In this document: positions 30,417-41,502 of the stretch, one piece after another
Numbering within the stretch: the first letter of the stretch is position 1
How the letters are laid out: each line of letters starts with the position of its first letter
NCBI GenBank assembly: GCA_045121495.1
Contig: JBGVGF010000030.1
Location: forward strand, 17,914-81,913
Reading direction: 5' to 3'
From: Faecalimonas sp.
GTDB lineage: Bacteria > Bacillota > Clostridia > Lachnospirales > Lachnospiraceae
Length of the DNA stretch: 64,000 nt
Notes under the pieces: model-generated
Database searches by the model: none
Told to the model about the DNA's origin: nothing
What the model saw: the letters and a program-made list of their open reading frames with translations, nothing else
Translations under genes and position numbers: made by a program

Positions 30417-31400
30417 ATGGATTCAAACAAAAGACCGGATACAATGGAACGTATTACAACACCTGAACTTGCAGATGCTTTTATCGCAGAACAAGTTGCA
30501 GCAGTTAGAGAACAAGTTGGAGATAAAAAAGTGTTATTAGCTCTTTCAGGCGGTGTAGACAGCTCTGTAGTAGCAGCATTATTAATTAAAGCAATTGGCA
30601 AACAATTAGTTTGTGTACATGTTAACCATGGTTTAATGCGTAAAGGCGAAAGTGAACAAGTTATCGAAGTATTTGAAAAAGGCTTAGATGCAAACTTAAT
30701 TTATGTAGATGCAACAGACAGATTCTTAGATTTATTAGCAGGTGTTGCAGAACCTGAAAAGAAACGTAAAATTATCGGAGAAGAATTTGTTCGTGTATTT
30801 GAAGAAGAATCTGACAAATTAGAAGGTATCTCTTTCTTAGCACAAGGAACAATTTATCCAGATATTCTTGAAAGTGATGGAGTAAAGGCTCATCACAATG
30901 TTGGCGGACTTCCTGAAGATTTCAAATTTGAAGGTTTAGTAGAACCAGTGAAATTATTATTCAAAGATGAAGTTCGTGTAGTTGGTAGAGCACTTGGTTT
31001 ACCAGCATCCATGGTTGATCGTCAGCCATTCCCAGGTCCAGGACTTGGTGTAAGATGTTTAGGTGCAATCACAAGAGATCGTTTACATGCACTTAGAGAA
31101 GCAGATGCTATCTTAAGAGAAGAATTCGACATTGCTGGCTTAACAGACAAAGTATGGCAATTCTTTACAGTGGTACCAGATTTTACATCAACAGGTGTGA
31201 AAGATGGAAAACGTCTTGATTACTGGCCAGTAATCATCCGTGCCGTAAACACAGTGGATGCTATGGCTTGTACAGTACCAGAAATCGATTGGGCAGTGCT
31301 TCAAAAGATCACAAACCGTATCTTAAACGAAGTAGATGGAGTATGCCGTGTATGCTACGACATGAGTCCAAAGCCAATCGCTACAATTGAGTGGGAATAA
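30417..31400 (+). CDS. guaA: GMP synthase, ATP-pyrophosphatase and C-terminal domains only (no GATase domain)
   Basis: SGGVDSSV, QGTIYPD, HHNVGG, RQPFPGPGLGVR, KPIATIEWE; 327 aa; AGGAGG RBS. Confidence 0.9.
   Translation: MDSNKRPDTMERITTPELADAFIAEQVAAVREQVGDKKVLLALSGGVDSSVVAALLIKAIGKQLVCVHVNHGLMRKGESEQVIEVFEKGLDANLIYVDATDRFLDLLAGVAEPEKKRKIIGEEFVRVFEEESDKLEGISFLAQGTIYPDILESDGVKAHHNVGGLPEDFKFEGLVEPVKLLFKDEVRVVGRALGLPASMVDRQPFPGPGLGVRCLGAITRDRLHALREADAILREEFDIAGLTDKVWQFFTVVPDFTSTGVKDGKRLDYWPVIIRAVNTVDAMACTVPEIDWAVLQKITNRILNEVDGVCRVCYDMSPKPIATIEWE
31235..31253 (+). repeat. 19-bp direct repeat inside guaA
   Basis: CATCCGTGCCGTAAACACA identical to 41153-41171. Confidence 0.9.
31359..31400 (+). 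repeat. Left att direct repeat (42 bp, guaA 3' end)
   Basis: GACATGAGTCCAAAGCCAATCGCTACAATTGAGTGGGAATAA identical to 41277-41318. Confidence 0.95.
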
Positions 31401-31538
31401 AAAAATTGGGGAAAAGCCTTATTTTATAAGGATTAAGAGCCTTTTGAGAGAAAAAAAGAAGTGGCTATGATTTGTTTTTTAGTTATTTAGAAAGCAATCG
31501 TAGCCACTTATTTTTTTTATTTAGAAAGGAGCTTTGAT

Positions 31539-32513
31539 ATGACTAAAGAGCCAACAAGAGAAGATGTTTTAAAAGAGATTAAAAGAAGAAAAAGAAAAGA
31601 TTTTGGGAAATATGGGGATAAGAATATAAGTTATAAAAGTTTGCTTGATCTATATGTTAGAAGATGTAAAGTGAGAAACTTGTCAGAAGCAACAATTCAG
31701 GGATATATGAATGCTAGTAGATATTTCATGGATTTTGCGGGGTATGATTTAATGTGTATTGATATAGATCAGGATTTAATAAATGAATATTATCTGTATT
31801 TACAAAATTTTTACAAACCACAGACTATAAATAGTTATGTGTTCAAAGTTTGTCCAATTGTAAAATTTGGAATCGAAGAAGGATACATAAAGGATGATAT
31901 TATTTTTACTCATGTAGTAGAACAAAAACAAGTTAAAGAAATTTATACAAAAGAAGAATTAGAGAAACTTCTAGTTAGACCTCAAAATGGAACGTTTGGG
32001 GAAATGAGAGCATGGACTGTTATTAATACGCTAATATCGACTGGGATAAGAGCAGGAGAGCTTAGAGCATTAAAAATAAAAGATGTGAAAATAGATGAAA
32101 GATATATTGTTTTGAATCAGACAAAGAACAGAGAACCAAGAATACTTCCTATGCCAACTACATTACAAAAGGTATTGTTGGAGTGGCTAGAAATAAGAAA
32201 TGGAGCGAGTGAAGATTATCTTTTCTGTAATATTTATGGAGAAAAATTAGAAAGATCAGTTTTACAAAGTTGCGTAAAAAAATATTCTTTGAAACGTGGA
32301 GTAAAAAAATATGGATTACATCTATATCGCCATACGTTCATAACTTTATCTGTTAAGTCGGGAATGTCGCCAGTTATGTTAAAGCGAATTACTGGTCATA
32401 AAAGCATGAAAATGCTTGAGCATTATTATCAGCATAATCCAACTGATTTAGTGGATATAGTAGATCAATACAATCCGTTGGAGAAATTCAGTCCAAGAGT
32501 AAGGAAATTTTAA
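31539..32513 (+). CDS. Tyrosine recombinase/integrase
   Basis: TGIRAGEL (R), TK, HLYRH (HxxR), GH and HY catalytic residues; AGGAG RBS. Confidence 0.93.
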   Translation: MTKEPTREDVLKEIKRRKRKDFGKYGDKNISYKSLLDLYVRRCKVRNLSEATIQGYMNASRYFMDFAGYDLMCIDIDQDLINEYYLYLQNFYKPQTINSYVFKVCPIVKFGIEEGYIKDDIIFTHVVEQKQVKEIYTKEELEKLLVRPQNGTFGEMRAWTVINTLISTGIRAGELRALKIKDVKIDERYIVLNQTKNREPRILPMPTTLQKVLLEWLEIRNGASEDYLFCNIYGEKLERSVLQSCVKKYSLKRGVKKYGLHLYRHTFITLSVKSGMSPVMLKRITGHKSMKMLEHYYQHNPTDLVDIVDQYNPLEKFSPRVRKF

Positions 32514-32516
32514 ATT

Positions 32517-32771
32517 ATGGGAAATAAAAATATGATAACAGTTGATGCAGATGAAATCTTTGATATTATGTGTGATTTTACGGACGTAGAACACGCTATG
32601 CTTAATTTAATAATAGTATGTAATGTTCTGTCAGAGCATTATAATGGAACTGAATATAACGAGCTTTATGCGTTTGTAAGCCTATTAACCAGTCAGATGG
32701 ATATGATACGAAAGGATTTTAGACGTGTCATAAATAGAGTGGATGAATTTTTGTTAAAGAATAAAGCATAA
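32517..32771 (+). CDS. Hypothetical protein (84 aa), co-transcribed with integrase
   Basis: Starts 3 nt after integrase stop; followed by a terminator. Confidence 0.6.
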   Translation: MGNKNMITVDADEIFDIMCDFTDVEHAMLNLIIVCNVLSEHYNGTEYNELYAFVSLLTSQMDMIRKDFRRVINRVDEFLLKNKA

Positions 32772-32774
32772 TAA

Positions 32775-32850
32775 TAACATCTTTTTTACATCTTTTAGTC
32801 CAGAAGCAAGCAAGAATAAAGCAAGTGTTTAACATCTTTATAACATCTTT
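32775..32850 (+). repeat. Two tandem pairs of TAACATCTTT (11-bp period)
   Basis: Copies at 32775, 32786 (TTACATCTTT), 32830, 32841; inverted pair at 40944 and 40955. Confidence 0.85.
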
Positions 32851-32916
32851 GAAACTGCGGGAAGCAGGCTTTAAAGCGATTGGTATTCTGCTGCCCGATC
32901 GGTGATTTTAATATTG

Positions 32917-32948
32917 ACGCAAGTCTATTCGTAGGCTTGCGTTTTTTT
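32917..32948 (+). terminator. Terminator of integrase operon
   Basis: ACGCAAGTCTA-TTCG-TAGGCTTGCGT plus T run. Confidence 0.8.
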
Positions 32949-32968
32949 GTTATAAAATCATACCAGTT

Positions 32969-33063
32969 CCATTAAAACGACTGGTTTTGCAATTGTGCAT
33001 TATATAATAAATACATAAAGAACAGGGAACACAAACCTGAAACAAATAGAAAGAATGAGGTAA
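32969..33063 (+). repeat. Repeated promoter/leader module, copy 1 (copy 2 partial at 33351-33405, copy 3 at 33599-33672)
   Basis: CCATTAAAACGACTG box plus TATATAATAAATACATAAAGAACAGGGAAYACAAACCTGAAA, repeated at offset 630. Confidence 0.88.
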
Positions 33064-33068
33064 GTAAA

Positions 33069-33350
33069 ATGAAAAAGACAAGAAATAGTAGAAAAGGAAA
33101 AAATATTTTTGGAGACAAATGTAGAGAAAAAATTTTAAAGCTTAATAAAGAAACAGCAATGGATCAGTATATAGAAATGATGAAAGATCTTTTGGTTAAT
33201 GGAAAAAACAGTAGTATCGAATATACAATTGACAGCAGTTGTTTCACAAGAGAAGAAGAGGAAGCTTTTTTTCAGAGTGTAGAGGGTATTAATTCGTTGT
33301 TTGCGAGAATGATGAATCGTAATTATACAGAATATACTTGTAAATATTAG
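33069..33350 (+). CDS. Hypothetical protein (93 aa)
   Basis: GAGGT RBS within the repeated leader. Confidence 0.65.
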   Translation: MKKTRNSRKGKNIFGDKCREKILKLNKETAMDQYIEMMKDLLVNGKNSSIEYTIDSSCFTREEEEAFFQSVEGINSLFARMMNRNYTEYTCKY

Positions 33351-33412
33351 TAAATACATAAAGAACAGAAAATATAAATCAGAAACAAATAGAAAGAATG
33401 AGGTAATTAAAA

Positions 33413-33595
33413 ATGAAAAAGATTTATTCCAAAGAAGCAATTAATCGTATGGCTGAAACCCTTTGTATGGATATTGAAGATCACGGTTGGCTGTGTGAGG
33501 ACGGGCATTGGCTGACAAACGAAGAATTTAAGGCATGGACAGATAAAGAAATTGTTGAAGCCTATGAGTTGGCTTATCCAGTGTTTGTTGGATAA
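33413..33595 (+). CDS. Hypothetical acidic protein (60 aa)
   Basis: Same GAATGAGGTAA RBS module as the upstream ORF. Confidence 0.65.
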   Translation: MKKIYSKEAINRMAETLCMDIEDHGWLCEDGHWLTNEEFKAWTDKEIVEAYELAYPVFVG

Positions 33596-33709
33596 GTGCC
33601 ATTAAAACGACTGATTAATAAAAACACTATTATATAATAAATACATAAAGAACAGGGAATACAAACCTGAAAGAAAAATAAAAATTTAATTTAAAAGGAG
33701 ATTAAAATT

Positions 33710-34186
33710 ATGACACTTAATTATGAAGCAAAGGCAATTGAAATGACAAAAACAGAAGCAAAAGAAGCAGGAAAACCAAATACAACAACATACAATAAAC
33801 TTATTGAACTGCGCACAGCATTTCCTACATTCGAAATCATTATAAAGAAAACAACTAGAAAAAAAAGCACATTCAAAGGTCTTGATTATGATTATATGGA
33901 AAGATATATGGTATCAAAAAAGAGTAGCCTTATCGAAGAATTCTATACAATGCGTGGTTATGTAGATGGAGTAAAAAATGATTTTGTAGAAAGCGCATCT
34001 TTTGGAGAAATAAAAACTTGGTTTTTGTTAAATTTCCCAGAAATCGAAGAATATAATAGCAAAGTTGAAAAATTAAGAGAAGAAAATAAAAGAAAAGTAG
34101 AAGCCAATAGAGAAAAGATGGCAGATGAGAAAAGACAAGAAAAAAAGAATGCTTATAAAGAAATGATTGCTGAACTTGCGAATTAA
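33710..34186 (+). CDS. Hypothetical protein (158 aa), paralogue of 34245-34691
   Basis: AAGGAG RBS; shared motifs FPTF, FKGLDYDYM, IKTWFLLNFPE. Confidence 0.8.
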   Translation: MTLNYEAKAIEMTKTEAKEAGKPNTTTYNKLIELRTAFPTFEIIIKKTTRKKSTFKGLDYDYMERYMVSKKSSLIEEFYTMRGYVDGVKNDFVESASFGEIKTWFLLNFPEIEEYNSKVEKLREENKRKVEANREKMADEKRQEKKNAYKEMIAELAN

Positions 34187-34244
34187 AAATTAGTAGTCCA
34201 GTAGAAAAAATAAAAGTATATCAAAAAGAAAGAGGTAAAAAATT

Positions 34245-34691
34245 ATGAAAAACACATTAAAAATTGATTTAAAAAAAAGAGTTATTATTATGGATAGAAC
34301 ATTCGCAAAGAATGTAGAAAATACAAATAGTGAAGAATACGCACATTTACAGCAGGTGCGCAAAGATTATCCAACATTTGCAGTTGAGAAGAAACAGATT
34401 AAGCGCAATGCAAACAAAGAAAGTTATAAAGGACTTACTTATGATTATATGAGAACTTACATCTTTACTCACGAACCAAAAGAAACAAAAAAAGATGTAT
34501 TAGAGGAAATGGAAGAAATGATTTTAATTTCCAAGTGTCATTCAAACGCAAAACGTTACCCAGTAATCAAGAATTGGTTTCTTGAAAAATATCCAGAAGT
34601 TAAAGAGTTTGGTATGAAAAAACCAGAAGAAAAGAAAGTTGTTGCGGAAAGCGGTGAAACAAATGAAGGAACACTTAAAAAAGTAGCATAA
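34245..34691 (+). CDS. Hypothetical protein (148 aa), paralogue of 33710-34186
   Basis: GAGGT RBS; YPTF, YKGLTYDYM, IKNWFLEKYPE. Confidence 0.8.
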   Translation: MKNTLKIDLKKRVIIMDRTFAKNVENTNSEEYAHLQQVRKDYPTFAVEKKQIKRNANKESYKGLTYDYMRTYIFTHEPKETKKDVLEEMEEMILISKCHSNAKRYPVIKNWFLEKYPEVKEFGMKKPEEKKVVAESGETNEGTLKKVA

Positions 34692-34763
34692 TTTTAAGTT
34701 GAACATTTAACAATTCTATAAATTATATTTGGTGTTAATACAATGACTTAAAACGGAAAGGAA

Positions 34764-35423
34764 ATGTTATATATGTTAGAAGTAAAGAAGTATTCGAAGC
34801 CTGAGATGACTAAAATATTTGGAACTAAAAATATGCAAGGTTTAGAAAGAAAATTAAAACGTTATGGTGTTATATTTGACAGAAAAGGTAGAGGTGAAAA
34901 AGCCATCTTTACTATAAAAGAAATAACCAATCCACTTAGAGTTTATCTTATCACAGAACTGGGTTTTAATGGGCAACATGATTATATCAAAGTGCGCAAT
35001 TTCTTATATTACTTCTTTAATGATGAAGAATTTATGGCAATGCCTGATGAAGTAAAAGAAGCTAGAATGAAGAATGATGGCAATGGTGTGTCAAGACAAG
35101 CAATAGCCGGTTATATTGCCAAATTAGATGGAAAAAATTTAATTGAAAGAAATACCAATAATTATATATATTACTTTGCATACAAGCAAAATCAACGAAT
35201 TGTAGATCGTGATGAATATATACAGGCGTGGCATGAGTATTGGGCTGATATTGATATGGGATTATATTCAGGAACAGCGATTAATAAAATGCGAAATAAA
35301 TATGGTGGAGTAGCAAGAAAGCAAGCAATACCTGAAATTAATGGTATTTACAAAACGGAAGTAGAATATTTAAATACTCTTATAGTAGAAAGTATAGAGA
35401 AAGAAATCGAGGAGCAAAATTAA
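34764..35423 (+). CDS. Hypothetical protein (219 aa) with probable winged-HTH segment
   Basis: VSRQAIAGYIAKLDGKNLI resembles an HTH recognition helix; flanked by related palindromes. Confidence 0.7.
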   Translation: MLYMLEVKKYSKPEMTKIFGTKNMQGLERKLKRYGVIFDRKGRGEKAIFTIKEITNPLRVYLITELGFNGQHDYIKVRNFLYYFFNDEEFMAMPDEVKEARMKNDGNGVSRQAIAGYIAKLDGKNLIERNTNNYIYYFAYKQNQRIVDRDEYIQAWHEYWADIDMGLYSGTAINKMRNKYGGVARKQAIPEINGIYKTEVEYLNTLIVESIEKEIEEQN

Positions 35424-35479
35424 GTCATTGATTTAACAGTAAGAGTATATATTATTACTGTTAAATCAATGACTTAATT
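35418..35479. repeat. Perfect 25-bp inverted repeat with 12-nt spacer
   Basis: AATTAAGTCATTGATTTAACAGTAA / TTACTGTTAAATCAATGACTTAATT; degenerate copy at about 34692-34752. Confidence 0.93.
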
Positions 35480-35545
35480 GGGCGTATTCAGTTAAAAGAG
35501 CAATCTTCTAAAGCAATATAATAAAAGAGATAAGGAGAAATAATT

Positions 35546-35728
35546 ATGAATTACCTTGATTTTATGAATCGTAATGTTCCAGATTATTACGATACAATGT
35601 ATATGGATGGTTATACACCAGAGCAAATTATAATGGCTCATAGAAAGATGATGCGTGAAATGCTATTAGAAGATGAAGAAGAACAGGAAAATGATTTTTC
35701 TATAGTTAGTCAGGTGAATGTAAAATGA
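35546..35728 (+). CDS. Hypothetical acidic protein (60 aa)
   Basis: AAGGAG RBS. Confidence 0.65.
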   Translation: MNYLDFMNRNVPDYYDTMYMDGYTPEQIIMAHRKMMREMLLEDEEEQENDFSIVSQVNVK

Positions 35729-36327
35729 GATTTTCCAGTCATGATAAGCGAAACAGAAAAAAGAAAAAGCGCAAAAGCCAGTCTGTTATTGAAAAAGAAA
35801 TACTGGCGATTATGTAGAAGAGTATGAAAACGGCTTTGGATCTTGCACTCGATGACATTATGAAAGAATGGAAATATTGAACGATACCGTTATCTTTCGT
35901 CTGACGGGAGAAATAAAATTTTGAGAAGTGAGTAGCTTTGCTACTCACAATCTCAAAAAATTTTATTTCTCTGTGTCGTCAAAGACGACAATAGAATTGA
36001 ATAATAATAACATAAGCGGAAGCTTGCTTTACCGATCTCAAAAATGAGAACAAAGAATCGGTGGAACGAGCTTCCGCTTTTTCTTGTTTTATAGACTTTT
36101 GCTTCTGGTGTCATCGGTCGCAAAGATCGTCTCCTGAAATCAAAATCACTCTTCGTGGGAGTGAAGCCCACGCATTTCCAACAACTACCTTTAAAAATTT
36201 TATTTTCCTGAAATATAGGCGGGTGTCAGCGAAAGGGTGATTATAATTTCTTGAACAAAAATAGACTATTTTTGCCTGTTTTTAGCCTTTTGGAACTTGT
36301 TATAAAGTGTTCAGGAAAACAGATGTT

Positions 36328-36552
36328 TTATTGGACACCCTCCACAGGATCTTCCACATATTCTACAAGATCACCTGGCTGGCAATTAAGTAGAGCGCAG
36401 ATCGTGTCAATGGTTTTCCAAGAGACTAATTCTCCGTGGCGCAATTGCTGTAAATAAGATTGTCCGATCAGCTTTTCTTCTCTGATCTTTGTAGAAGTGT
36501 ATCCTGCTTTTTTTAGTTCTGCCATAATATCAAGTTTATATCGTATAGCCAT
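36328..36552 (-). CDS. XRE/Cro-family HTH regulator (74 aa)
   Basis: MAIRYKLDIM...VSWKTIDTICALLNCQPGDLVEY; AGGAGG RBS. Confidence 0.9.
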   Translation of the reverse strand: MAIRYKLDIMAELKKAGYTSTKIREEKLIGQSYLQQLRHGELVSWKTIDTICALLNCQPGDLVEYVEDPVEGVQ

Positions 36553-36590
36553 AATCATCCTCCTTTTGATAATTTTATCATAACATATAA

Positions 36591-36683
36591 TAGCACTAGA
36601 ATATAGTGTAAATAATACACAAAATAAGCACTGGAAATTAGTGTATTTTACCAATAGACTGCACTAGATATTGGTGCTATAAT
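36591..36683. promoter_or_regulatory. Divergent promoter region with three GCACT-N-AGTGY operators
   Basis: Palindromes at 36591-36610, 36626-36645, 36659-36679; rightward TAGACT-17-TATAAT (36655-36683). Confidence 0.8.
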
Positions 36684-36866
36684 AAAGACAGTTAAGAGAG
36701 GAACACAAGTCAAGGCGGACGGGATTACCGAAAGGGAAAGCAAGAACGCAAGGTAAGAGTGAGACAGGATAAGAGAGAGTGAGATTGCAAAAGGTGCATA
36801 GATGTTTAAAGCCACTCAACACTTGAAAGCCTTAACAATAAAACAAACCAAAAGGAGAAATGAACA

Positions 36867-37145
36867 ATGACAAAAGCAGAAATGATCGCAAAAATCGAGG
36901 CACTTAACGAATGGGAAACACTTATGGAAGAAGCAAAGGCAGAGGCAGACGCAATTAGAGACAGCCTCAAAGCTGAAATGATGGAGAGAGAAACAGAAGA
37001 ACTGATCGCAGGATCTTACATCATCAGATGGACTTCCGTTCTTTCAAATAGATTTGACACTACTGGATTTAAGAAAATGTATGGAGATCTCTACAAAGCA
37101 TTTACAAAGCAGAGTGCGAGCAGACGATTCTCAATCTCCTGCTAA
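36867..37145 (+). CDS. Hypothetical protein (92 aa), coiled-coil N-terminus
   Basis: AAGGAG RBS; long leader from strong promoter. Confidence 0.8.
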   Translation: MTKAEMIAKIEALNEWETLMEEAKAEADAIRDSLKAEMMERETEELIAGSYIIRWTSVLSNRFDTTGFKKMYGDLYKAFTKQSASRRFSISC

Positions 37146-37202
37146 TAGATAACAATCTCCACAGACAACACAAAGCCTGTGGAGATAGAAAGGATAGACG
37201 CT

Positions 37203-37790
37203 ATGAATTACGGATATGCAAGGTGTAGCACCAACGAAACAAAGCAAGATATTAACAGACAAGTGCGGGAACTGAAAAGCGCAGGCGCAGAAGAAATTTT
37301 TCTTGAATACGAACATGGAGACAGCAAGATCAAAGACCAGCAGCAAGAAATGTTTGCGCAGGCAGCCGCAGGAGATACAATTATTACATTAGAAGTTCCA
37401 CGACTTGCCAGAAGCACAAAACAGTTATGTGAGATTATCGATATTATCAGAGAAAAGCACCTGCGTCTTGTGATCCTTGGAAGTATTACTCTTGATTGCC
37501 GAGATGGACAAGCAGACCCAATGAGTGAAGCATTTTTACAAATGGCAGGAGTTTTCAGTCAGTTAGAACTTTCAATGATTCGATCAAGAGTGCGTTCGGG
37601 GATGGCAAACGCCAAAGCTAAGGGGAAAAGGATCGGGCGTCCGCATGTATCTGTGGAGGATCTGCCTAATACATTCCTTAAACACTATCCTGCTTACAAA
37701 ACAGGAAAACTTAATCTTTCAGAATTTGCCAGAGTATGTGATTTGAGCAGAACGACAGTTTATAAATATATTGAACTTTTGGGAAAATAA
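37203..37790 (+). CDS. Serine recombinase (resolvase/invertase family)
   Basis: YGYARCST, RLARS, C-terminal HTH SRTTVYKY. Confidence 0.92.
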   Translation: MNYGYARCSTNETKQDINRQVRELKSAGAEEIFLEYEHGDSKIKDQQQEMFAQAAAGDTIITLEVPRLARSTKQLCEIIDIIREKHLRLVILGSITLDCRDGQADPMSEAFLQMAGVFSQLELSMIRSRVRSGMANAKAKGKRIGRPHVSVEDLPNTFLKHYPAYKTGKLNLSEFARVCDLSRTTVYKYIELLGK

Positions 37791-37814
37791 AAGGTGCAGA
37801 ATTCTGCACCTTTT
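37789..37814. terminator. Perfect 26-bp palindrome, probable bidirectional terminator
   Basis: AAAAGGTGCAGAATTCTGCACCTTTT between convergent stops. Confidence 0.75.
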
Positions 37815-38364
37815 ATTTTTTAATTCTTACCGTTGGATTATAAGTATTCCTTCCTTTATCGATAGTAATTTCATCACCTTCATCTGTAGTGATATTAATA
37901 TCATATTCATAGCCCCACATCTCATCAGGAATATCAATTTTAAGAATCGAGCCCTTGACTTTTTCACAAGTAACACCATATTCAAAAATATTATTAATAT
38001 CATACCCACTCCCTAGGTTCGCAAGTTCTATATCGTCTGTCCTTTCAAAATATTCACCTATCCCATTATCGTATGTATATGTAAGTCGAATGACACTATC
38101 CGACGTAACATAACAGTTTTCCTTTAATGCAATCCTTGTAGTTGTATAACGGTCTGTTTCTTCCCCAAAAGAATCTTCTACTGTCACTTCAATTTCTTTT
38201 AATTCAATATAGTCTTTCCAGTTTTCAGTGGTTAATTCAATAAACTCTGCATCTGCTAATAATTCTTTTTGTGAGATAGTTTGTTTTTTCGTGTTATCCA
38301 AACTACAACCACAAACAGAAATTATCATAAAACATAAAATCATAAGTAAAAATAATTTTCTCAA
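37813..38364 (-). CDS. Putative lipoprotein, paralogue 3
   Basis: TTG start after AGGAGA; signal peptide with CGC lipobox; ELTTENWKDYIE motif. Confidence 0.75.
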   Translation of the reverse strand: MRKLFLLMILCFMIISVCGCSLDNTKKQTISQKELLADAEFIELTTENWKDYIELKEIEVTVEDSFGEETDRYTTTRIALKENCYVTSDSVIRLTYTYDNGIGEYFERTDDIELANLGSGYDINNIFEYGVTCEKVKGSILKIDIPDEMWGYEYDINITTDEGDEITIDKGRNTYNPTVRIKK

Positions 38365-38377
38365 GTTATTCTCCTTT

Positions 38378-38968
38378 TTAATTAAAAAATGATTCATAAG
38401 TAGCTGTTGAATCATCTATTGTTATTGTATCATTTGCTTCCCCTCTCTTGATTAGGACATCAATACTTTTACTTCCATCCTCATTGATGTTCCATCTTTC
38501 ATCAGGAATATTCGTTTTAAGAATTGTGCCTTTTATTTTTTCACAAGAAACACCGTATTCAAAAATAGCAAGCAGATCCCATCTTCTTCCTTCATAAATA
38601 GGTCCATCATAAAAAGAATAATCGTGTGTCATTTCATAATATTCGCCTATTCCATTATCATATGTAAATGTGATTCGAATGGCATTATCTTCCGAAATAT
38701 AACAGTTTTTCTTTAATTCCATTCTTGTTGTTGTGTGGCGACCTGTTTCTTCGCCAAAAGCATCTTTTTCTATCACTTCGACTTCTTTAATTTCAATGTA
38801 ATCTTTCCAGTTTTCGGTTGTTAATTCAATATATTCTGCATCTGCTAACAATTCTTCTTTTGAGATAGTTCCTTTTTTCGTATTATTATTTACGGAGCCA
38901 GTTGTATTGCAAGAACAAGTGGAGAAGCAGATGAGCAGAGAAAGCATAAAAATTAGTGTTTTTTTCAA
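38378..38968 (-). CDS. Putative lipoprotein, paralogue 2
   Basis: TTG start after AGGAGG; CSC lipobox; ELTTENWKDYIE motif. Confidence 0.8.
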   Translation of the reverse strand: MKKTLIFMLSLLICFSTCSCNTTGSVNNNTKKGTISKEELLADAEYIELTTENWKDYIEIKEVEVIEKDAFGEETGRHTTTRMELKKNCYISEDNAIRITFTYDNGIGEYYEMTHDYSFYDGPIYEGRRWDLLAIFEYGVSCEKIKGTILKTNIPDERWNINEDGSKSIDVLIKRGEANDTITIDDSTATYESFFN

Positions 38969-38992
38969 AATGAGTTCCTCCTAAATCCTTTT

Positions 38993-39634
38993 TTAATGCA
39001 TATATTCAGCTTCCCAGGTTGATGAACCAAAACCGCATATGATTTCTTTTATATTAGCATTGACAAGATACGGTGTCATGCTGTTTTCAGCAGCTATATA
39101 GAAACCACTTTCGTAAATTTCAGCTATTTCACCAGGTAATGGAGAATAGATTACTTCATTAGGGAGATTTACTACATAAACATTGCCTTTGATTCTGGAA
39201 CATTCATAATCTTTGATATTAAAATTTGATGGAAGATAATCATAAATTTTATCACCTTTAGGATCTAGGGAGTAGATAATGGTCTCTCCTGTTGTTTTGT
39301 TCTTTAATTCGATAACGACATCTTCATAACAATAATAGTGCTCTATATTAGCGCCCAAGACCCTTCGCACAATTTCTTCGGATGAAATGACTTCGCCAAA
39401 TTCATCTTTTTCTACAATTTTTTCGGTGTATTTAATGACATCAATATAATTATTCCAGTTTTCAGGGTTGAGTTTTACTAATTCGAGGCATTCATTAAAT
39501 CTATTGCGGTTGATACATTTTATCCCATCTCTTTCGATAACTAGGGTGTCAGCTATTGTTTGAGAAGAATCACCACAAGAACAAAGTGACAAACACATAA
39601 TTAAAGTAAATGTAATTATAATAAGTTTTTTCAT
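38993..39634 (-). CDS. Putative lipoprotein, paralogue 1
   Basis: LSLCSCG lipobox; KLNPENWNNYID...EKDEFGE motif. Confidence 0.8.
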   Translation of the reverse strand: MKKLIIITFTLIMCLSLCSCGDSSQTIADTLVIERDGIKCINRNRFNECLELVKLNPENWNNYIDVIKYTEKIVEKDEFGEVISSEEIVRRVLGANIEHYYCYEDVVIELKNKTTGETIIYSLDPKGDKIYDYLPSNFNIKDYECSRIKGNVYVVNLPNEVIYSPLPGEIAEIYESGFYIAAENSMTPYLVNANIKEIICGFGSSTWEAEYMH

Positions 39635-39768
39635 AATAATTCCTTTCTTCTAAAGTAGTCATTTGATTATAGAATATTTAAAAGAACAAGTCAAATTTGA
39701 GCGATAATAAAATAAAACAGCTTTTTCTGTTATAATGAGTAAAAGGTCAAGAGAGAAGGGAATCGATT

Positions 39769-40923
39769 ATGGAAAAGGTTTATAAAAAATTTCACAGAAA
39801 AAAGGATCAGCATTTAAACGGAACTATTGAAGCTAAACATGGAAAGCAGACAAACCAGAAGCTAAAAGCTTATGTGGTTCTCCAATATCTATTAAAGTAT
39901 TCTGATGAAAATCATGTGGCGACCGCATTTGATCTGATAGAGTTCCTGAATGAAATGGGGATTAGTGCCGAGCGCAGATCCATTTACAAAGATATAGAAG
40001 AAATCAACAAAGTTGCGTTGATGATGGAAGAAGAATGTTCTGTAGAAGAAGCAGAGGAAATGCTTGAAGATGATGAAGATGGAGAACTAAGGTTAGTTAT
40101 CTATGATAAAAGCAAAAAAGGATTTTATGTGCGTCAGCGCCACTTTGATCTTAATGATATTCGACTTCTGGCTGAATGTGTGTATTCTGCTAAATTCGTG
40201 GCAGAGGGACAGGCAAAACGTCTTGTAGATGTTGTTTGCGATTTTGTTAGTGAGTATCAGGCAGACAAGATCAGGCACAATGCTTTTCTTACAGATAGAG
40301 TAAAGACCAATAATAAAAGTGTATTAAATAATATTTCACTCATTAACGAAGCTATGAGTAAGGAAAGTGATGGACAGAAACACATTCCTGAAAAGATCAC
40401 TTTTAAATATTTAAAATATTCTCTCGATAGTATGGGGAAACAAGTGGAGCGCAGGCAGGGTGCAAAATACTGCGTTAGTCCTTATCAGTTATTGATTAAC
40501 GATGGGAACTACTATCTTCTGGCTTATGATGATTACGCAAAAGATATGAGAACTTATCGCGTGGATCGAATGAAAGGTGTTTCTTTCACAGGAGTTCCAA
40601 GAGAGGGAGAAGAAGTTTTTAGAGAAATCGATTTGAAGACTTATACACAAAGAGTGTTTTCTATGTTCGGTGGAGAAGAAAAACGTGTGGTTTTGCGCTT
40701 TATCAATCCGCTTCTGGATACAGTTGTAGATCGCTTTGGAACAAAAGATGTTTATTATAGTAAAGTTGATGATACACATTTTAGTGTATCTGCGCACGTA
40801 GAGATCAGCGATCAGTTCTTCGGTTGGCTTCTGGGATTTGGCAGAAAAGTTAAAGTGCTTGCGCCAGATGATGTTGTAGAACAGTTTAAAAAGTATATGG
40901 AACGTATTATAGAAATGTATTAA
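39769..40923 (+). CDS. WYL-domain transcriptional regulator
   Basis: N-terminal wHTH (ERRSIYKDIEEIN), VSPYQL...NYYLLAY...RTYRVDRM WYL motif, FFGWLLGFG C-terminal domain. Confidence 0.9.
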   Translation: MEKVYKKFHRKKDQHLNGTIEAKHGKQTNQKLKAYVVLQYLLKYSDENHVATAFDLIEFLNEMGISAERRSIYKDIEEINKVALMMEEECSVEEAEEMLEDDEDGELRLVIYDKSKKGFYVRQRHFDLNDIRLLAECVYSAKFVAEGQAKRLVDVVCDFVSEYQADKIRHNAFLTDRVKTNNKSVLNNISLINEAMSKESDGQKHIPEKITFKYLKYSLDSMGKQVERRQGAKYCVSPYQLLINDGNYYLLAYDDYAKDMRTYRVDRMKGVSFTGVPREGEEVFREIDLKTYTQRVFSMFGGEEKRVVLRFINPLLDTVVDRFGTKDVYYSKVDDTHFSVSAHVEISDQFFGWLLGFGRKVKVLAPDDVVEQFKKYMERIIEMY

Positions 40924-40943
40924 AGTGATATGAAACATGAATA

Positions 40944-40964
40944 AAAGATGTTAAAAAGATGTTA
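40944..40964 (-). repeat. Tandem pair AAAGATGTTA (inverted copies of TAACATCTTT)
   Basis: Copies at 40944-40953 and 40955-40964. Confidence 0.8.
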
Positions 40965-41152
40965 GAAGAAGAGTCATATTTCAGTGGGTTGGAAATTTGC
41001 CTTTTAGAACAAAGTATGTTATTTTGGAATAGGAAGAGTAGAAAGCCAACTAAATAACGAAAAAACATGTTAGCTACGTAGTGAAAAAAGGACACTTGTT
41101 CAACAAAAAGCGTGATTGGAGTAAAAAACAGTCCGCGATAGCGAAGCTATCG

Positions 41153-41318
41153 CATCCGTGCCGTAAACACAAAAGACGCTATGTCTGCAACAATCGAAGA
41201 AATTCCATACGAAATCCTTCACCATATCACATACAGAATCACACACGAAGTTCCTGGCATCAACAGAGTTCTTATGGACATGAGTCCAAAGCCAATCGCT
41301 ACAATTGAGTGGGAATAA
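41153..41318 (+). pseudogene. Second, divergent guaA 3' fragment (54 codons, in frame, no start) containing the right att repeat
   Basis: IRAVNTKDAMSATIEEIPYEILHHITYRITHEVPGINRVLMDMSPKPIATIEWE*, colinear with 31235-31400. Confidence 0.92.
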
Positions 41319-41502
41319 TCACGTTTGTCACGAAGATTAGAGATAATTTACATGCTCCACAGAGAAATTCTCTGGCGGGGCATGATCTGATTAAAAAATT
41401 ATTTTTAGAAAATATAGAACAAAGAATTAGAATGTTGCAGCAGGTCATCAAAGAAAAAGAAGCAGCATTAATTCAGAAGAAAAATAAGAGGAGGCGTCAT
41501 AT

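Follow-up and report, generated by a model that had tools for sequence, protein, structure and literature searches.

The window analysed here is a 64,000-nucleotide (nt) stretch of DNA from a Faecalimonas species (contig JBGVGF010000030.1, positions 17,914 to 81,913), and all coordinates below refer to it unless another locus is named. It contains an array of small open reading frames (ORFs) preceded by copies of one module, which consists of a short conserved box, a -10 hexamer, a leader with a small hairpin and a ribosome-binding site (RBS) with its Shine-Dalgarno sequence (SD). The array ends in a core operon and lies in a small integrative element inserted at guaA. Promoters and transcription start sites are predictions from sequence. 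The features of the array are listed below; pI denotes the isoelectric point and E the expectation value.

32963-33068, plus strand: module copy 1 (full), with box, -10, leader with hairpin, and SD
32966-32981, plus strand: box of copy 1, 16 nt, a candidate regulator site at about -49 to -34
33003-33008, plus strand: -10 of copy 1, TATAAT
33023-33026 with 33036-33039, plus strand: hairpin of copy 1
33057-33060, plus strand: SD of copy 1, GAGG
33069-33350, plus strand: orf93, accessory cassette gene, orphan, pI 8.8
33348-33412, plus strand: third module, decayed; covariance model match to model positions 43-105, E 2.5e-5
33413-33595, plus strand: orf60, accessory cassette gene, orphan, acidic, pI 4.5
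33593-33709, plus strand: module copy 2 (full), with box 33596-33611, -10 33633-33638, hairpin 33653-33656 with 33666-33669, and SD GGAG 33697-33700
33710-35423, plus strand: core operon of orfA (33710-34186), its paralogue orfB (34245-34691) and orf216 (34773-35423)

Two full copies and a remnant of the module

The 15-mer CCATTAAAACGACTG is found exactly at 32969-32983 and 33599-33613, and both boxes end (after GAC) 21 nt ahead of TATAAT. A 44-nt stretch of the leader (32999-33042) recurs with one mismatch at 33629-33672, an offset of 630 bp, and a 25-mer covering the -10 and the leader start is present exactly twice, with zero occurrences expected in shuffles. There is no TTGACA-like hexamer at either full copy, and a consensus promoter scan calls nothing at the modules. 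The CAGG/CCTG hairpin is the minimum-free-energy fold in both full copies. In the third module, ahead of orf60, the box is gone, the -10 has become TATTAG, which contains the stop codon of orf93, and the hairpin is destroyed, leaving no fold; its RBS part is intact. The repeated leader, the box equidistant from TATAAT, the lack of TTGACA at the -35 position, the third partial copy ahead of the middle ORF and the leader hairpin had all been named in a sequence-only reading of this DNA, and each was recovered by our analysis; the sequence features likewise support its proposal of a shared promoter-leader-RBS module with a non-canonical -35. Its description of the 93- and 60-residue products as both acidic is correct for orf60 and wrong for orf93, as the isoelectric points above indicate.

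Copies 1 and 2 are conserved patchwise and are not a fresh duplicate: the box (18/19 positions identical) and the stretch from the -10 to CCTGAAA (40/42) are well matched, the spacer (8/19) and the 3' leader (12/23) poorly. Both also lack the TG extension of the -10. Since neither a -35 nor this extension is present in the window copies, an activator is likely needed, and by ordinary rules these promoters should be weak when unaided. If transcription is assumed to start ~7 nt past the -10, the box spans about -49 to -34, with its centre at about -41.5. Copy 2 is the predicted promoter of the core operon. Elsewhere in the 2.9-Mb genome the 15-mer has one single-mismatch match, on contig C24; this was rejected as a module, lying in a coding region with no -10. 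The composite pattern of box and -10 occurs in this genome at the two array sites only. A reading of the box as a cre-like (CcpA) site was also set aside, as only the left half fits, judged by eye.

Conservation of the module in related elements

Relatives were gathered from the contigs of orf216 homologues (367 at E <= 0.001), from genome loci found with a profile, and from contigs bearing orf60 or orf93 homologues. This gave ~60 loci (designated here by L numbers) from gut and rumen Clostridia, among them metagenome-assembled genomes named Faecousia, Flavonifractor, Ructibacterium, Oscillospiraceae, Acutalibacteraceae and others; the related elements come from several host families. Their common layout comprises an integrase at the left or right end, orfA-orfB-(orf65)-orf216, two tiny ORFs, an XRE-type gene, orf92, a resolvase, variable cargo and a WYL regulator; orfA, orfB and orf216 are the only genes shared by all related loci that are long enough to include them.

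A profile of the first copies, followed by a covariance model, recovered 44 full module copies in ~25 related elements. The 16-nt box consensus is GTACCATTAWAACGAC. In an alignment of 28 copies, nine positions of the box are invariant, the distance from box (after GAC) to -10 is 21 nt in 27 of the 28, with L057 differing only by a 2-nt insertion within the box, and the -10 is TG-extended in 22. The 21-nt spacer is free to vary, its identity being at background level. The conserved parts of the module are 82-98% identical between the window and L029 or L026, despite a synonymous divergence (dS) of 1.2-2.6, that is saturated, in the neighbouring orf216, and the module is present in elements whose orf216 identity falls to 32%. 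Concerted evolution of the copies within one element was considered and dropped, because spacer identity is equal within and between elements.

Broader searches returned little. The exact 25-mer of the leader had no match in a search of genome contigs, and a 23-mer leader pattern hit one metagenome contig and zero viral contigs. The composite pattern of box and -10 had one match in 400 genomes of the host family, which is not above reversed-pattern controls.

A palindrome takes the position of the box in L037 (5880-6003), L034 (5775-5897), L046 (5822-5942) and other distant relatives, where it ends a few bases before TGnTATAAT. It is perfect, with arms containing, for example, GGTATCCA and TGGATACC. 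The leader of this type, ~110 nt long, carries the same purine/pyrimidine hairpin, an invariant GGT-GCG-ACC motif and a variable third stem with a CAAGAG-like loop; it is possibly an undescribed cis-regulatory leader. RNAalifold applied to these long leaders gives one invariant helix only, as MAFFT misplaces the variable stems, and Rfam has no match for them.

The leader hairpin

The hairpin lies downstream of the -10 in an A-rich leader and has a purine-rich 5' arm, an A/C-rich loop, 4-5 pairs and no T run. Among 43 distinct leaders, the best stem near the 5' end has a mean score of 7.3, compared with 3.7 in shuffles (0/200 shuffle sets reach the observed value). As many as 22 different pairs of best-stem arms were found, mostly complementary variants at one leader position, such as CAGG/CCTG, GAGG/CCTC, AAGAGG/CCTCTT, GAAAGG/CCTTTC and GGGA/TCCC. 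A model-fitted alignment shows changes on both sides in all 4 pairs, with 19 double-change cells where 6.4 are expected; the covariation score is 0.285 vs 0.140 (0/500), and slid controls are lower. Such an alignment is biased towards structure, and the covariation is thus to be read as support, not proof, that the hairpin is kept by compensatory changes. Stems and loop lengths differ even within one element (L067, L076), which favours an RNA structure over an operator. The hairpin would then act at the RNA level, as a 5' stabiliser or in translation tuning. The idea that its 3' arm sequesters the real SD was dropped, as the complementarity is not conserved in the sequences checked by eye. In Rfam, no match overlapping the module was obtained at E up to 1 (31400-41400).

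Cassette content and recombination breakpoints

A single module, ahead of orfA, is present in the distant relatives L035, L042, L054, L057, L059, L060 and L062. Two or three modules occur in the subclade that includes the window, and each extra copy precedes a different small orphan gene. The genes behind the extra modules are as follows (F4 and F8 denote cassette families).

L026: nothing
L082: orf60
L090-93: orf93 relative, alone
window, L080, L081, L083, L085: orf93, then orf60
L029, L079, L084: orf60, then F4
L067: F8, then F4
L068, L073, L076: F4
L030: truncated orfA-like ORF, then F4
L074: a 134-residue singleton (orf134)

Near-identical elements differ only in the presence or absence of orf93, orf60 or both. 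Alignment of the window with L080, L085, L082 and L026 resolves these differences into nested insertions and deletions (indels) bounded by module sequence. Thus, L082 equals L026 plus one unit (3' leader, orf60, box, -10, 5' leader), and L080 and the window equal L082 plus orf93 and the module remnant, with repeats of the RBS part on either side of this indel. What the remnant retains depends on the lineage: the window keeps the leader start, L080 the loop and 3' arm, and L085 the box. Different decay in three lineages indicates that their ancestor had three full promoters. In L026, the single module joins the slot-a spacer of L080 and L082 to the slot-c 3' leader, a hybrid which places a crossover within the shared 44-nt core. 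In L090, the spacer of slot c is similar to that of slot b in L030.

Only a few bases separate the stop codons from the next box, all intergenic bases between cassettes are module sequence, and every ORF is flanked by homology on both sides. As the breakpoints are located within the module, the repeats act as scaffolds for recombination, and shuffling of cassettes between modules is supported by these comparisons. The recombination-shuffled array proposed in the sequence-only reading agrees with this variation, and identical ORF content in all relatives, which would have spoken against it, was not what we found.

Accessory and core proteins

Searches of 5.8 billion proteins gave five homologue clusters for orf93 and eight for orf60. 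The ratio of nonsynonymous to synonymous substitution rates (dN/dS) is 0.21-0.56 for orf93 and 0.14-0.43 for orf60; such purifying selection indicates that both are genes. Behind its own full module, orf60 is found in L029, L079, L082 and L084. F4, the commonest cassette, shows only a generic C-terminal zinc ribbon.

No family was found in Pfam, PHROGs, NCBIfam or PADLOC for orf84 (a gene upstream of the array), orf93, orf60, orfA, orfB or orf216, and sequence profiles of PDB entries gave nothing. AlphaFold models of orf216 and orfA reached predicted local distance difference test (pLDDT) values of 92 and 94, respectively. A Foldseek search of PDB returned no significant neighbour for either protein, and in BFVD (viral predictions) they match only uncharacterised virome proteins. 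In its model, orf216 looks as if it were built of stacked winged-helix units.

The integrative element at guaA

Other features of the element are the following.

31401-41152, plus strand: integrative element holding the array, 9.8 kb, bounded by the 3' end of guaA (to 31400) and a second copy of the guaA end (41153-41318)
31539-32513, plus strand: tyrosine integrase, Pfam Phage_integrase, E 2.7e-26
32517-32771, plus strand: orf84, homologue 84-85% identical in L026 and L080
32916-32952, plus strand: predicted intrinsic terminator, 12 pairs, then a T run
within 37813-39634, minus strand: three cargo ORFs of 200, 196 and 213 residues
39769-40923, plus strand: HTH-WYL regulator, PADLOC WYL, E 5e-30; candidate box-binding factor

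The repetition of the last 166 nt of guaA at 41153-41318 defines 31401-41152 as an integrated element. The two guaA ends (31235-31400 and 41153-41318) are identical at 119/166 positions, including all of the last 42 nt. The element brings its own version of the last 55 guaA codons; as the guaA end has diverged in the element copy, integration swaps the C-terminus of GMP synthase for a diverged version. The gene order of the window element is also found in L026, L029, L030, L068, L074 and L076.

The integrase and orf84 (31539-32771) form their own transcription unit, upstream of the array. In a scan of 32400-35600, the terminator at 32916-32952 is the sole terminator-like site, lying ahead of the array, which has none inside; it is kept in L026, L080, L082 and L085, and is predicted to shield the array from integrase and orf84 transcription. 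Between orf84 and this terminator, at 32775-32850, there are short ACATCTTT-type repeats, found at the matching place in L026, L029, L030 and L050; possible functions are as iterons or as arm sites for the integrase. Starting at the orf216 stop codon, an inverted repeat (35418-35479) with 31-nt arms and no loop is 94% complementary and has no T run after it; it could be an operator or an origin.

Downstream of the array, the gene order is an XRE gene on the opposite strand, orf92, a small serine recombinase (resolvase/invertase), the three minus-strand ORFs and the HTH-WYL regulator. The cargo between the resolvase and the WYL gene (the 37813-39634 slot) is different in every element, with a SHOCT protein, an RHS-repeat protein and uncharacterised proteins in relatives, which suggests a further variable slot, controlled by WYL.

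The core travels with two unrelated integrases. One, of 312-324 residues, is at the left end in the window (at guaA), L026, L030 and L090; the second, of 404 residues, is at the right end in L073, L074 and L076, and L029 has a minus-strand integrase there, cut by the locus end. Such pairing of one core with two unrelated integrases indicates that the integration function has been exchanged as a module. In L068, L073 and L076, a rubrerythrin gene forms the left flank.

Scans with Pfam and PHROGs found no virion, terminase or replication genes in the element, and phage and plasmid collections gave no DNA match to it. By DNA it was not found in 400 sampled genomes of the host family, only short matches at chance level being returned. 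Two relatives, L065 and L066 (orf216 43% identical), are filed in IMG/VR as viral contigs of 10-12 kb; none of the parts read shows a virion gene.

Discussion

The explanation that we favour, judged as a whole, is a probable one: the module family would be a unit of promoter and 5' untranslated region (UTR) which belongs to integrative elements of ~9-10 kb. In the ancestral state, one module would have driven orfA-orfB-orf216. In the subclade that includes the window, the module would have been duplicated, and the extra copies would drive accessory orphans placed between the upstream terminator and the core operon. A dedicated transcription factor would bind the box and activate a promoter that has no -35. 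As all intergenic sequence is module, the accessory genes would be switched on together with the core operon by the reader of the box. In the window, P1 (~33015) would transcribe orf93 and orf60 and read on into the core operon, and P2 (~33645) would transcribe the core operon; the middle promoter has decayed, probably because it was redundant. The ~80-110 nt of near-identical flanking sequence would allow homologous recombination, within or between elements, to delete, insert and swap cassettes.

The most likely factor to read the box would be the HTH-WYL protein of the element, which would tie expression to a signal such as single-stranded DNA. DriD promoters offer a precedent: they do without a -35, whose position is covered by the regulator site at a constant spacing from the -10 (PMC13004042); the mechanism of PafBC is related to that of DriD (PMC8635444). 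The module promoters likewise have no recognisable -35 and hold the box at a fixed distance over the -35 position, and a WYL protein is encoded in the element. They differ from DriD and PafBC promoters in that the box is asymmetric, the organisms are unrelated, and the pairing of WYL and box is here a prediction from sequence.

Covariation between promoter type and regulator is one argument for this assignment. Loci with box-type promoters have WYL proteins that share at least 51% identity (51-90%) with that of the window, those with palindrome types 25-48%; L063, with a WYL protein 44% identical, has a variant box at the same spacing. The identities of XRE, orf216 and orfB overlap between the promoter classes. 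On the WYL tree, the box loci fall in one clade (support 99), and the distribution of box and non-box types requires 2 changes, compared with 4 on the orf216 tree. In L031 and L050, the promoter type follows the WYL protein, not the physically adjacent orf216, and in L073 and L059 the box and WYL are kept where XRE and orf92 are absent. On this phylogenetic evidence and the likeness to DriD, we regard the proposal that the WYL regulator of the element reads the box as evenly balanced. CapW-type WYL regulators beside defence genes are repressors (PMC11662680), so that either sign of regulation may apply; we lean slightly towards activation.

Several observations weigh against parts of this explanation. 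The association with WYL amounts to only two or three independent contrasts, and L032, which is of the palindrome type, adjoins the box clade on the WYL tree and is ambiguous. WYL regulators commonly autoregulate, and no box-like site was found near the WYL gene. The box is asymmetric, unlike the palindromes used by dimeric WYL regulators such as DriD. The hairpin is absent in two module copies (copy c of L073 and copy c of L090) and is, therefore, not essential. Finally, module identity could come partly from gene conversion instead of selection alone.

A factor other than WYL may read the box, be it a host regulator, another protein of the element such as orf216, or an unusual sigma contact; we consider this a doubtful possibility. 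It would fit the conservation of the box among elements whose WYL proteins are only 51-90% identical, the WYL promoter, which has no box, the predicted winged-helix-like units of orf216 and the spread of related elements over several host families, in which a conserved host factor could serve too. Against it, the box type is spread over the orf216 tree (4 changes) and is not followed by XRE identity, a reading as a -35 would require a spacer of 20-21 nt, too long for promoters of the sigma-A type, and, with the composite pattern confined to two sites in the genome, no regulon exists in the host.

The sequence-only reading had placed the array in a phage early region, its small ORFs being anti-defence or host-takeover effectors fired together on entry. 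In favour of such effectors, orf93 and orf60 encode small orphan proteins under purifying selection, the cassettes show rapid turnover and co-regulation, both frequent in anti-defence loci, and two relatives of the element are held in IMG/VR. The surroundings are, however, not those of a phage: the element encodes an integrase, XRE, a resolvase and WYL, with none of the virion, terminase or replication genes and no match to phage records, and the array thus sits in a small non-phage integrative element, not in a phage early region. The database searches link neither orf93 nor orf60 to a family, and F4 offers only its zinc ribbon. We consider this functional reading improbable, and an anti-defence or host-takeover role of orf93 and orf60 is pure conjecture.

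It is very improbable that the box is instead a site-specific recombination site, acted upon by the serine recombinase or folding like attC, so that cassettes move by excision and insertion. The element does encode a small resolvase/invertase, and the box, with invariant GT...AC ends 12 nt apart, stands at every cassette boundary. Against this, the dyad shows no significant extension (the observed values are reached in 31/500 and 23/500 shuffles), the register of box and -10 is fixed in single-copy elements, and no resolvase is detectable in L059 and L060, both of which have the box. Moreover, the breakpoint of the orf93 indel is in the RBS portion of the leader, away from the box, and the crossover seen in L026 is located downstream of the spacer. 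A box hairpin or attC-like structure was rejected, its covariation being not significant. A simple recent tandem duplication of no functional meaning, suggested by two near-identical stretches 630 bp apart and counted in the sequence-only reading among the findings that would speak against it, is refuted by the divergent spacer (8/19 identical, compared with 40/42 for the flank), the mutually unrelated ORFs between the copies, the nested indels, the spacer markers and the presence of the same module in elements with distant orf216, and its probability is negligible.

The nearest known counterpart of the array is found in T4-type phages, in which PeSL cassettes place a conserved composite motif between the small orphan genes of a variable region (PMC2839356, PMC4122927). 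A PeSL has a full sigma-70 consensus (-35 and -10) and an upstream stem-loop which terminates transcription (PMC2839356). In our elements, too, orphan ORFs are flanked by the motif, relatives differ by insertion, deletion and replacement of ORFs with indels and crossovers inside the motif, and one motif both drives expression and offers a site for homologous recombination. Unlike PeSLs, the module has no -35 and hence no full sigma-70 consensus, bearing a specific box in its stead; its hairpin is in the downstream leader and does not resemble a terminator, the cassettes have no terminators between them, and a small integrative element of Clostridia takes the place of the lytic phage as carrier. 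The module works like PeSLs and is not a member of that class, as the sigma-70 consensus, the terminator stem-loop and the phage genome are all lacking.

Phage morons have individual promoters and terminators, and integron cassettes are promoterless, end in a folded attC and need IntI, with attI and Pc. The array resembles both in that small accessory genes are added as self-contained units at one site of a mobile element. It differs from morons in the use of one shared module, and from integrons in having an ordinary phage-type integrase at the element end, a promoter for each cassette and a box whose dyad is not significant.

To our knowledge, shuffling by means of shared regulatory cassettes has been documented essentially for T4-like phages. 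The array would extend the same logic to gut anaerobes and to a small integrative element, whose promoters are of another kind, carrying a specific box and no -35. One further proposal, which we put forward tentatively, is that the module is a gene-capture platform, in which a signal-sensing WYL activator, with its gene at one element end, reads a private box replacing the -35, so that ORFs captured by recombination between two modules at once join a private regulon. If true, it would be a promoter-based, homology-driven counterpart of the integron, in an uncharacterised family of small integrative elements. The system offers a 16-nt box with few candidate binders, a covarying leader hairpin and a natural series of alleles with and without cassettes, and the module itself is a search handle for annotating further orphan cassettes. 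Since the core and accessory ORFs match no family, and the core no solved fold, these elements may be a compact source of new biology in gut Clostridia.

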